In this document: positions 28,714 to 32,300 of the stretch, piece after piece
How the letters are laid out: the number at the start of each line of letters is the position of its first letter
How positions within the stretch are numbered: position 1 is the stretch's first letter
Assembly: GCA_965261185.1 (NCBI GenBank)
Contig: CBDHCN010000002.1
Coordinates: 2,528,813-2,592,812, forward strand
DNA from: Candidatus Aldehydirespiratoraceae bacterium
GTDB lineage: Bacteria > Actinomycetota > Acidimicrobiia > Acidimicrobiales > Aldehydirespiratoraceae
Direction of reading: 5' to 3'
Length of the DNA stretch: 64,000 nt
Notes under the pieces: generated by a model
What the model saw: only the letters and a program-made list of their open reading frames with translations
The model's database searches: none
What the model was told of the DNA's origin: nothing
Translations under genes and position numbers: made by a program

Positions 28714-29326
28714 GTTGTTACTTTCGAATCATGACTCGCCCGGCGGGGTCGAGCGCGTGGAGGTCAGCCATGGTGTCGGTCGCGAGGGCCGCGAAGACTG
28801 ACCGGTTGCTAGGCGAAACGATCATGACCGCCTCCTGGGGATGGCCCGGGTCGGCTGGTTGGTTCCGCATCCGCTCAGGTCCGGCATAGTGGTCGCTGCG
28901 AGGGCCGCGAAGATCGAACGATTGTTGGTGGAGGTGATCATGATCGCTTCTGCGGGACGCACCGGGTCTGTCTGCCGGTGGCGCAGAGATCGAAGAGATG
29001 GTTGGTTGCGATGATCCCGAACGGAAGCTGCTGGGTGAGATTGAAGAGCATCGCGAATCTCTGGGGGGGGGGGGGGGGGCGTTCATTGCGTTCGACGCGG
29101 CAGCACTCGGGTCTGTTGTCCCGGACCCACCAGATGTAGGTCCGGTAGCAGCCGCGTCGCCAACGCCCCGAAAATCGCCATATTCGATGGGCCAGCAATC
29201 AAGATCGCCTCCGTCTCGGGATGACTCGGCATCCGCCCTGGTTGGGTCCGAGGAAGTTGAGATCGGTGATGAGTCTCGTTGCGAGGAGCGTTGCGTGGCC
29301 TCGGTTGTTCTGTGTCGGGAGCGAGA
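28714..29326 (-). repeat. Five tandem, diverged copies (~110-150 bp each) of the Type ISP linker segment, each ending in its own stop codon
   Basis: Minus-strand translations in shifting frames are: (a) SLPTQNNRGHATLLATRLITDLNFLGPNQGGCRVIPRRRRS*; (b) EAILIAGPSNMAIFGALATRLLPDLHLVGPGQQTRVLPRRTQ*; (c) AMLFNLTQQLPFGIIATNHLFDLCATGRQTRCVPQKRS*; (d) AIMITSTNNRSIFAALAATTMPDLSGCGTNQPTRAIPRRRS*; (e) AVMIVSPSNRSVFAALATDTMADLHALDPAGRVMIRK*. Confidence 0.7.
29063..29079. repeat. G17 homopolymer (C17 on the coding strand) between cassettes b and c
   Basis: Counted directly. It starts 3 nt downstream of the TGA that ends the 1423-aa ORF. Confidence 0.9.
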
Positions 29327-32300
29327 ATCTCTCTCTCTCTCTCTCTCTCTCTCTCTCTCTCTCTCTCTCGTCCGCTGTTCGGGAACATGGCGGAGACGGT
29401 TTTGACGCTGGAGAGGATGCGGTGGTCTTCGTAGAGCCAGAGTTTGGTGAAGGGCCGGTACAGCACTTCGCGGATTCGCGTTTCGTCGAAGGAGACCTCT
29501 ACGCCTTTCTTCAACGACTGTTTGAGGGTGGCGGTCCATTTGATGACCGCCAGGTCGGTGTTGGCGGTGCATTCGTCGAAAGACAGTCCGAGGTCGTGGT
29601 GCAACTCGCGGGCATCCTCGTAGGTGTCGATCAGCCATTTCATCTTGTCAATCAGGTCGTCGCGAGAGAACGAGTAGACATAGGTATCGCAGTTCGTGGC
29701 CAGCCCGAGAGCGTGAACCTTTATTGCAGTATCGCCTCTCTCTCGCTCACCGCTGATTGCACAGACCGGCAGCATGGTCTCAAAGGTGCCGTCGGTGATG
29801 TTTACCCAGTCGTGGGCGTCGTTGACCGTAACGGTTTCGAATGCGTCGTTGGTTATGTCACCGATCTGGTCGAGCCAGTGGAACTTTTGTTGAAGCGTGC
29901 TGTATTCGGGAACTTGGGCGTAATGCAGTTTGGCGGGTTCGTTATGGTTTTTGTGGGGGTTGCGCACAAGCACAGTGATCTGGACCCCGTTGCGCGACCC
30001 CGCCCCGAAGATCTTGTCGCCTTCGCGGCGGAACTCGTCGCCTGACTTCATGGCGTCGCCTAGTAGGTTGACGACGTAAATGTCGGTGAACTCGTCGCGT
30101 AATGCGGCTCGCATCCCGGCGAGGCTGGTGGCGTCGCACAGCGAGTTTGGATGAATGAAGGCGATGACCCCAGGCTGGTCCCTTCCCGGATGATTGAGCC
30201 GATCCGAGGCCCAGCGGATGGCTTGCACATAGAGATTGCCCGCCGATTTGCCTGCGCCCTTGCCGGTGACTTCGCGGTGGCGTTTGCCGTAGGTTTCGCG
30301 TACTCGTTGCTCGACGTGGGGGTACTCGCGACGGGGATTGTCGTCGCCGGATGATTTCTGGCCTGCTGACCACGGCGGGTTGGCGACGATCACCTGGATC
30401 GGTAGGTCGTGTTGTTGTTTGGCGCGGGCTGTGTTGTAGCCGATAGCACCGGTTCCGGGCAGCGTTGAGGGGTCGTGTTCGAACGTGTCGGTCAACACGA
30501 TCCCGCTGAACGGTTCATACCGTCCGGTACGGGCTCGATAACCCTCTTCGATTTTCAACGCGGCGAGGTAGTAGGCGAGCAGCACGATTTCGTTGGCGTG
30601 GATTTCTTGGGCGGTTCCGCCTGGCACTGTGGGGTTGTGGGTGTTGACGAACTTGCGTTCAAGATCTTCATCCGCGATCAGTGGGTCCCCACCGCTGTTG
30701 TTCTGGGTCAACAGGCGATAGATGAAAGTGCCGGTGCCCGTGAACGGATCGAGGATGTGTACGTCTTCGGCGCTGAGACCCCGCCCGAAGTTGTGTTGCA
30801 GCACAGCATCGACTGACCGCAACACGAAGTCGACGAGTTCAATCGGCGTGTACACGATCCCGAGGCGCTGGACCTCGTCCGGCATCGCTTCAGCAAAAAA
30901 GGATTCATAGACCTCCAACATGATTTTGATGCGTGCATCCGAATCCGCTGCGCCTACGAGACGGATACGAACGCTGGCATAGAACCGGTCCAGCCCGGCT
31001 GTCTCATCGGCTAAACGGATGTCGTGCTCTTTGAACTCACCGAGGAGTTCGTTGAGGGCCTTAGAGATCGGGTTGCGGTCCGCGAAACCCGATCCGGCGA
31101 ACAACGCGTCGAACACCGGCATTGTCACCACATGTTGAGCGACCATCACCGCCAGGTCACCCGAAGGCAACGCCCCGCCGATAGTGGCTTCCATCTGTTC
31201 GGTGAACTCGTCGAACCGTGTAGCCAAATCACTGTTCTGGTTGATGACCGAGCGGACATGTTGAGTGATCGTGTTGGTGATCCGTGCCACCTCTTTGCCC
31301 CAACGGTCCCAATACTGGCGATCACCACAGACATCCACCAATTTCGAGGCGATAGCGTTCTCGAACGGCAACCGGCCTTGCACAAGCTCACTCACCGAAA
31401 CACGCGCCGGGCATTCGTCACCGCTGTCACAACCAGACTCGCCGCATTTATCACAGATCCCCGAAGTAATGACCTTGACCGGGAGTCTGCCGGTCAAGTC
31501 GGCGGTGTTGATCGCTACGTCGAGGCGGTCGTCATGGCTTCGCAGCGCCTTGAGAACGTTCCAAACCTGTTTGAAGTCCGAGCCTGACAGCACCGCGTCA
31601 TCAGCAAGATTCGAACCCGACGGCACCATTACGGGCACCACTACATAACCGTATTGCTTGCCCTCCGAGCGTCGCATCACCCGACCAACGGCTTGCACCA
31701 CGTCAATCTGTGAACGCTTCGGTTCGATGAACAGCACCGCATCCAACGCAGGAACGTCCACGCCCTCGGTGAGGCATTTGGCGTTGGTCACGATCCGACA
31801 TCGGTGGTTGTCGTCGCCATTTTGGAGCCAGGCGATGGTGTTGGCCCGGTCCAACGCATTCTTCGATCCGTCCACATGGCGGACCTCGCATTGAAGCAAC
31901 TCGACCCCGCCCCGAGCACTTGATGTCATCATGTCTGTTACCGGATTCCAGTACCTCTCAACACCCAACGAGTTCTTGATGGTGTTGGTGAACGCGATGG
32001 CCCTGCGAGCAGCCATGTCGGGGCGGACAGCACCGGTGATCCTGTTTTGGGTGGTGCGCGTGGTCGGATCGGCTAGCGCATCCCAGCACCCGGCGAACTT
32101 CACCGCTGCCCGGGCGGTAATTGGCCGCAACCCTTCACCAACGGCGATGCTGTCGAGGTTCTCCAACACAGGGTCTTCAGCGACCGCGATCACCAGCACC
32201 TGATAATCGGTGAGATAGCCGCCATCCACGGCCTCGCCGAAACCCATTCGGTAGAACTCCGGCCCGTAGGTGTCGGTGTCATCCATCGAGTAGACATCGA

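Follow-up and report, generated by a model that had tools for sequence, protein, structure and literature searches.

The system described here is a Type ISP restriction-modification (R-M) system encoded on the minus strand of a 64,000-nucleotide stretch of a Candidatus Aldehydirespiratoraceae genome (contig CBDHCN010000002.1); we call the whole of this 64-kb stretch the window and give coordinates as window positions unless otherwise noted. The gene for its large subunit, ORF1, carries three long simple sequence repeats (SSRs) and ends in a tandem array of five alternative modules, here called cassettes a to e, while a second gene, ORF2, encodes a small subunit. We consider it likely that this is a split Type ISP R-M enzyme in which slippage of the repeats allows one DNA-reading loop, Loop VI, to be replaced by another. 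The evidence for the switching architecture is good. Reading frames follow a regular logic across the array, tract lengths are polymorphic between near-identical strains, the design is conserved between loci, and every cassette class is under purifying selection. From homology we infer that the products of ORF1 and ORF2 form a single enzyme. By the same homology the cassettes probably change the DNA sequence that is recognized, mainly at target position +3 and possibly at +2.

In the mechanism that we propose, ORF1 would supply the nuclease, the motor, the methyltransferase and most of the target recognition domain (TRD), and would end in a module of ~40 residues made up of a TRD-core strand and Loop VI. 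There are five alternative modules in tandem, with a shift of one frame from each to the next, and two slippery repeats precede groups of them. One frame after (GA)n would lead to a, one to b, and the third would stay open as far as Cn, from which the three frames would lead to c, d and e. Gain or loss of a repeat unit at replication would select one of five enzymes, heritably and reversibly, and a 5' Cn tract after the ATG would switch the whole gene ON or OFF. The separate ORF2 would contribute the remaining TRD (core helices and guide), the original frame would never be needed again, and the off-frame stretches read before the chosen module would serve as linkers free of constraint. With somewhat less confidence, we favor the broader view that this is a recombinase-free multi-state specificity switch in which nested SSRs form a ternary decision tree addressing up to seven base-reading loops in staggered frames, so that a single locus would cycle stochastically through several specificities and an OFF state, and that such switches have spread between sponge symbionts belonging to two or more phyla.

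Division of the target recognition domain

Based on Pfam matches (Mrr_cat_2, ResIII/Helicase_C, ISP_coupler, N6_Mtase and Type_ISP_C) and alignment to LlaGI, LlaBIII and DrdV, the body of ORF1 (29370-33469, minus strand) comprises an Mrr nuclease, an SF2 helicase-like ATPase, a coupler, an N6-adenine methyltransferase and the N-terminal part of the TRD including Loop V. Its translation contains the catalytic motifs LPCGTGKS (Walker A), LCDEAHR, DPFTGTGTF (methyltransferase motif I) and VANPPWS (motif IV). ORF2 (28000-28713, minus strand) encodes a small subunit of 237 aa that corresponds, by Pfam and by alignment to LlaGI, to the C-terminal part of the TRD, which is to say the conserved core helices and the guide subdomain. 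The Type_ISP_C profile is divided accordingly, with positions 4-108 in ORF1, positions 165-341 in ORF2, and positions 109-164 supplied by a cassette. When the tail of ORF1, cassette e and ORF2 are joined, the resulting sequence aligns to LlaGI (PDB 5FFJ, E = 7e-66), DrdV and LlaBIII. Adding 164 to the LlaGI chain index gives the published residue numbers N1327, R1329, H1368, G1372 and Q1373, which we use below.

The preliminary description of this locus, made from the sequence without database searches, took the repeated segment to be a linker between the methyltransferase and the TRD. The alignments place it elsewhere. The residues ILSSVKTV immediately before the (GA)n tract align with Loop V, and each cassette consists of a TRD beta-strand and Loop VI, matching FATLISEYLSDMH1368VIGG1372Q1373ARNLPR in LlaGI and PDVN1360LFTGGSQNLPK in LlaBIII. 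Cassette e (PDL-H-ALDPAG-R) pairs residue for residue with Loop VI of LlaGI (D-M-H1368-V-I-G-G1372-Q1373-A-R), and DLN in cassette a pairs with DVN1360 of LlaBIII. Because the cassette aligns to a TRD-core strand and the base-reading Loop VI, the repeated unit is a base-reading element and not a linker.

Work on the characterized Type ISP enzymes allows some predictions about what each cassette would read (Kulkarni et al. 2016, PMC4872093). In these enzymes Loop VI reads target position +3, by way of H1368 and G1372/Q1373 in LlaGI and N1360 in LlaBIII, and in all of them a histidine in this loop goes with G and an asparagine with A at +3; position 1373 of LlaGI matters for other bases, Loop VI is longer in the enzymes that also read +2, and the C-terminal guide subdomain reads no bases. 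By this correspondence cassette a, with its asparagine, should read A, and cassettes b and e, with histidines in loops of different length, should read G and possibly differ at +2. Cassettes c and d are of the Cys and Ser types at the base-reading position. ORF2, by the same homology, corresponds to the part of the TRD that reads no bases.

We scanned for ORF2 in one genome per species and obtained 79 loci, nearly all of them in metagenome-assembled genomes (MAGs) of sponge-associated Acidimicrobiia, with a few in Dehalococcoidia and Caldilineaceae. ORF2 is separate from ORF1 in every sponge-derived locus and is fused to it in Corynebacterium and Bryobacteraceae relatives only. We observed three gene orders (ORF1-ORF2, ORF2-ORF1 and divergent), with the array at the 3' end of ORF1 in all of them, and some loci have unrelated genes that separate the array from ORF2. 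These observations do not agree with the earlier suggestion that 28000-28713 is a specificity domain detached by a frameshift, and they make irrelevant the single-A deletion that would join cassette e to ORF2, a fusion that we reject as the ancestral or functional state. The genes inserted between the last cassette and ORF2, noted in L005, L006, L007, L010 and L020 (our locus numbers), are small. They comprise an ATPase fragment, a pair made up of a nucleotidyltransferase and a HEPN-like gene, and two ORFs that are ribbon-helix-helix-like and peptidase-like, respectively.

A Type ISP enzyme is a single polypeptide, whereas here the TRD is divided over two ORFs, so by its sequence we classify this system as a split variant of Type ISP and not as a canonical member. 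Since the TRD is split directly after Loop VI, alternative endings can be encoded in different frames without any return to the original frame.

Frame selection in the cassette array

Three-frame translation of the array reveals five homologous segments of ~40 codons, diverged in sequence, with neighbors in different frames and each with its own stop, as the preliminary description had reported; its positions for the two tracts are exact, and we have refined those of the cassettes. On the minus strand, and counting stop codons, the order is as follows. The perfect (GA)21 tract (29369-29328), which is the first selector node, precedes cassette a (29199-29327; Loop VI class NFLGPNQGGC, with the Asn at the position of LlaBIII N1360) and cassette b (29083-29205; class HL(V/M)GPGQQT, in frame with ORF1 as sequenced). 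The C17 tract (29079-29063), the second selector node, precedes cassette c (28938-29051; class CATGRQT), cassette d (28822-28944; class SGCGTNQPT) and cassette e (28718-28828; class HALDPAG, usually the last cassette in arrays). Cassettes a to d end in TGA and e ends in TAA. The TGA that closes each module is formed by the first codons of the module that follows, and e, as the last, closes with its TAA. We considered whether the ATGA and TTGA overlaps at these junctions reflect translational coupling of small cassette ORFs, and rejected this because CTGA is frequent at the same position, which means that the stop is conserved and the start is not.

We simulated tract lengths in silico and found that all five cassettes are reachable, with one frame path for each. 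For (GA)n, the remainder of n divided by 3 decides the outcome: 1 gives a, 0 gives b, and 2 gives a pass-through frame that is open across the whole of a and b and reaches the C tract. This second node is accessible in the pass-through frame only, and there a remainder of 2 for the C-tract length m gives e, 0 gives c and 1 gives d, so that C17 as sequenced would give e. The long ORF at 29083-33354 runs through (GA)21 as (RE)n, passes a off-frame, reads b in frame and stops at 29083, exactly as first described. The same description expected a change of one GA unit in either direction to select a; this holds for one unit more, but one unit fewer gives the pass-through frame, and with C17 leads to e.

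Three features had escaped notice: the open frame across the whole array, the true start codon of ORF1, and an ON/OFF tract directly after it. The conserved N-terminal sequence GLFxxLRxRYxTxQERGRVFERLMQYAF sits upstream of the ATG at 33354 and is in frame with the ATG at 33485-33483 (minus strand) only through a C tract, so that the ATG at 33354 is merely an internal methionine; the gene call in a near-identical strain, L001, also begins at 33485-33483. The tract in question, C13 at 33482-33470 (minus strand), is the sole further long mono- or dinucleotide tract in the window. In simulations C14 and C17 yield the full ORF and C12, C13, C15, C16 and C18 yield products of 5-15 aa, which makes this a translational switch that is ON only at n = 3k+2. 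With C13 the out-of-frame product is MPPPPLKMTRNQLM, followed by a stop. The gene in the window is thus OFF as sequenced and would end in cassette b if ON, with the proviso that a homopolymer length in a single assembly may be off by one unit. The ATG(A)-Cn layout is also present in 12 other loci. Just ahead of this start, 6-9 nt before the ATG, there is a conserved -10-like TANNNT box (CTAAAGT in the window, 33486-33505; equivalent sites in L003-L042), which suggests that the ORF1 mRNA may be leaderless, with the slippery tract from the second codon on.

The most direct evidence that the tracts vary comes from L001, a metagenome contig (ENA ERZ26694896) that we found by exact-protein look-up of ORF2 and that is 99.2% identical overall to the window. 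Over 5.2 kb (window 26858-32076) there are zero substitutions between the two, yet all three tracts differ in length, C17/(GA)26/C20 in L001 versus C13/(GA)21/C17 in the window. The L001 lengths yield an ORF of 1594 aa that is ON and ends in e. These are the hallmarks of SSR phase variation, a unit that is not a multiple of 3 in or at the start of a coding sequence and a length that differs between near-identical genomes. Two other loci from the ERZ26694896 sample share this genomic context and carry other alleles. In L082 the 5' tract is degenerate and locked ON, one node is a G23 tract, and the two first cassettes are different ones (NNLDGGC and AMIAGS); L083 has C15 (OFF), a G16 node and three cassettes. 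Only ORF2 and the downstream exonuclease were productive as look-up queries. Exact-protein look-up of the 1423-aa ORF gave no match, as expected given that tract states alter the product, and an exact 24-nt DNA scan of JGI metagenome contigs gave no further near-identical strains.

The design is conserved well beyond these strains. Our first cassette hidden Markov model (HMM), built from the five copies in the window, missed arrays in ~25 loci, and an improved HMM run on both strands found 75 arrays in 70 loci. The comparison with orthologous loci that had been suggested as a check shows both varying tract lengths in near-identical strains and one shared design. Arrays have 2-7 detected cassettes, with 3, 5 and 7 the commonest numbers, and even counts probably mean that one cassette was missed. 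In L024, L038 and similar loci, groups of C tracts located 3.3-4.7 kb upstream had looked like a separate N-terminal array, but the better HMM revealed them to be ordinary 3' arrays of divergent ORF1 genes. All nodes are preceded by a repeat with a unit of 1, 2, 4, 5 or 7 nt (C/G; GA, AG, CA, TC; CGGA, CAGC, CGAA, CGAC, ACCG, GGTC; ACCCG, GGAGC; CAGAGAT), and the units contain no stop codon in any frame. Tract lengths in the arrays range over C9-C27, with G up to 23 and (GA) up to 33.

When three frames are followed from each node, the design predicts pass-through plus two successive cassettes at an internal node and three cassettes at the last node. These outcomes were found at 64 of 68 nodes, and at 111 of 140 in a wider set. 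The chance of such a fit is ~6% per node, given that in the bodies of the same genes an off-frame stretch is open in 17% of cases when it is 240 nt long and in 37% when it is 120 nt long. ORF1 terminates exactly at the stop of a cassette in 52 of the 58 assembled arrays, and the cassette is the first in 21, a middle one in 22 and the last in 9. This spread over first, middle and last cassettes is predicted by active switching and not by a single default state.

Beside these arrays we noted some variants. Two separate arrays, that is two split Type ISP systems, lie within 20 kb of each other in L035, L039, L046 and L065. L010 has additional G19 and G8 tracts between two cassette groups (-1224 to -1034, counted from ORF2), without recognizable cassettes, which may be a degraded or divergent node.

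The cassettes fall into ~11 discrete Loop VI classes (HALDPAG, CATGRQT/HVAGRPT, SxxGTNQPT, HLMGPGQQT, AAIKGSQQT, AMIAGS, NNLDGGS, NFLGPNQGGC, KAAGIAAAC, ATIKGTHGST and NGLSPGIGGC) that are common to several species, in orders that differ, with each class present at most once per array. To obtain the classes we clustered the loop segments; single-linkage clustering applied to entire cassettes had merged most of them. Within classes, the native frame gives dN/dS values of 0.13-0.26 (0.23 overall) and the other two frames give 1.17 and 2.13, for alignments that were built on native-frame peptides and so favor that frame somewhat. The constraint in the native frame indicates that non-terminal cassettes are translated and constrained, and that pass-through readings are unconstrained except for being free of stops.

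Alternative explanations and known systems

Several points weigh against a slippage-driven exchange of Loop VI. The change of specificity and the ORF1-ORF2 complex rest on homology to LlaGI and LlaBIII. Pass-through states place 40 to ~250 unconstrained residues before the chosen cassette, which ORF1 would have to tolerate, and the ORF2 start in the window, read directly, has a weak ribosome-binding site. The OFF/b state assigned to the window is uncertain, homopolymer calls being error-prone. Of the 140 nodes in the wider set 29 are not fully as designed, many of them resembling a cassette missed by the HMM, and the loci are phylogenetically related, so these node counts are not independent. 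To these must be added the bias of the dN/dS alignments described above.

The alternative that survives best, although we regard it as the less probable account, is that the tracts act mainly at the RNA level, by transcriptional slippage or ribosomal frameshifting, so that each cell makes a mixture of variants; this is compatible with slippage at replication. The tracts are very long, and tracts of such length provoke RNA polymerase slippage. A 2026 preprint also describes expression across (AG)n in a Mycoplasma mod gene (Type III) that is leaky to a degree that depends on the frame. The DNA tract lengths, on the other hand, differ between near-identical strains, the tetra-, penta- and heptanucleotide repeats at many nodes typify slippage of DNA and not of RNA, and a 5' ON/OFF tract makes little sense if the frames are averaged out.

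An unlikely alternative is that the switch is real and the cassettes leave the recognized sequence unchanged. They might tune activity, or be OFF or decoy ends beside one productive cassette, or vary a surface exposed to phage anti-restriction proteins. The homology argument for specificity leaves room for this, and the HALDPAG class, which is nearly universal and usually last, could mark the sole working version. Yet the non-terminal classes are constrained as strongly as the terminal one and are never duplicated within an array, and assembled genomes rest on first, middle and last cassettes alike. The classes also differ exactly at the equivalents of LlaGI H1368, G1372 and Q1373, and the alternation of His and Asn is tied to G or A at +3.

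The preliminary description had left open whether the array is a switch or an advanced stage of decay. The idea of a functionless pseudogene produced by tandem duplication and frameshifts draws on a gene that, as sequenced, is out of frame at its 5' tract and split into several ORFs, but we consider it effectively refuted, since the same layout recurs in 70 loci of several species and two phyla, the cassettes are under purifying selection in their native frames, the pass-through frames are open far above chance, and a near-identical strain has a full-length ON version; with tract polymorphism and all cassettes reachable, it is the switch that stands. That the tracts or the array are sequencing or assembly artefacts is hardly credible, for although homopolymer lengths from long reads are error-prone, both occur in independent assemblies made by different methods (SPAdes NODE_ and MEGAHIT k141_ short-read contigs and chromosome-level MAGs), and the differences in L001, 3-4 C and 5 GA units, exceed typical errors.

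Phase variation by repeat slippage is taught as switching between two states, ON and OFF, and multi-specificity R-M switching is thought to require recombination between whole TRDs. If a split Type ISP enzyme with exchangeable Loop VI modules is confirmed, it would be a third route, in which the repeats work like the bits of an address and designate which of 3, 5 or 7 functional endings the protein receives. The position of the split in this enzyme family, exactly behind Loop VI, would then have an explanation. The finding also suggests that loci of this kind are routinely mistaken for broken genes by gene callers and pseudogene filters. For sponge symbionts the system could be a compact means of varying their specificity against phages, and possibly also gene regulation that depends on methylation. 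The amino-acid-to-base recognition code of Type ISP enzymes is partial, and the ~11 conserved classes of Loop VI would be a natural library with which to extend it; they could also offer a template for engineering switchable specificity.

The initial impression that no R-M system with this layout has been described agrees with our search of the full-text literature, where we did not find it, but related concepts exist. LlaGI and LlaBIII (PDB 5FFJ and 4XQK) have the same order of Mrr nuclease, SF2 ATPase, coupler, gamma-class N6A methyltransferase and TRD. However, each of these canonical enzymes is a single polypeptide that has one Loop VI and lacks repeats, whereas here the TRD is split after Loop VI, which is present in 2-7 detected copies and selected by SSRs. 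In the C-terminal phase variation of Helicobacter canadensis (Snyder et al. 2010, PMC2823697), an SSR near the 3' end likewise alters the C-terminus without silencing the gene, and our simulations agree with this pattern in that the tract is near the 3' end and all frames give a protein that differs only at its C-terminus. There, single homopolymers change from a few to ~20 unrelated residues with an effect that is undescribed, in contrast to the homologous, selected modules, nested SSRs and up to 7 outcomes here.

The shuffling hsdS genes of phase-variable Type I systems (pneumococcal SpnIII/SpnIV, 'epigenetic invertons'; PMC7394358, PMC7672463, PMC6265443) also switch specificity stochastically by exchanging parts of the TRD. 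They do so by inverted repeats and site-specific or homologous recombination of whole TRDs, unlike the direct cassettes, single loop and choice of reading frame in this system. In our arrays all of the cassettes are direct, inverted repeats are short and at chance level, and there is no recombinase gene adjoining the window locus. The SSR-controlled ON/OFF methyltransferases (Type III mod phasevarions, SSRs in Type I hsdM and hsdS, and the Type IIG enzyme Cj0031; PMC5909438, PMC7383803, PMC4889913) have repeats with units that are not multiples of 3 in R-M coding sequences, as does the 5' Cn here. Those systems are binary, or truncating at most, whereas the internal tracts here choose alternative endings that are predicted to be functional.

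Neighboring genes and other observations

Directly upstream of ORF1 (33513-34648, minus strand) are a gene for a 233-aa protein without a Pfam match and an HTH_31 (XRE) gene, the latter 145 aa as called in L001 and a 164-aa ORF from GTG in the window. Downstream, a gene for an RNase_T (DnaQ-like) exonuclease with a BRCT domain (27045-28016, minus strand) overlaps the end of ORF2 by 17 nt. Beyond it is a DUF222 and HNH endonuclease gene (25721-26884, minus strand), beside which L083 has a transposase gene (rve) inserted.

In L081, a further locus from the ERZ26694896 sample, the Type ISP gene is replaced, at 3258-7509 of the contig and in the context of window 29000-33500, by three genes, which encode a 162-aa protein, a 377-aa Metallophos protein and an 878-aa SMC_N/AAA_15 ATPase. 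A 100-aa Type_ISP_C remnant is kept before the exonuclease gene. The replacement has the look of gene turnover at a hotspot within a defence island. The 233-aa/HTH_31 pair is retained in L081, where the ISP gene is gone, and may be an independent module or a controller. We had considered the RNase_T-BRCT gene as a component of the system and rejected it, as it is kept in L081 without the ISP gene and is absent from the loci of other species.

Apart from the tracts in the ISP gene, a window-wide scan found a single repeat of at least 12 nt, the hexanucleotide (CGCTGT)4 at 58580-58603.

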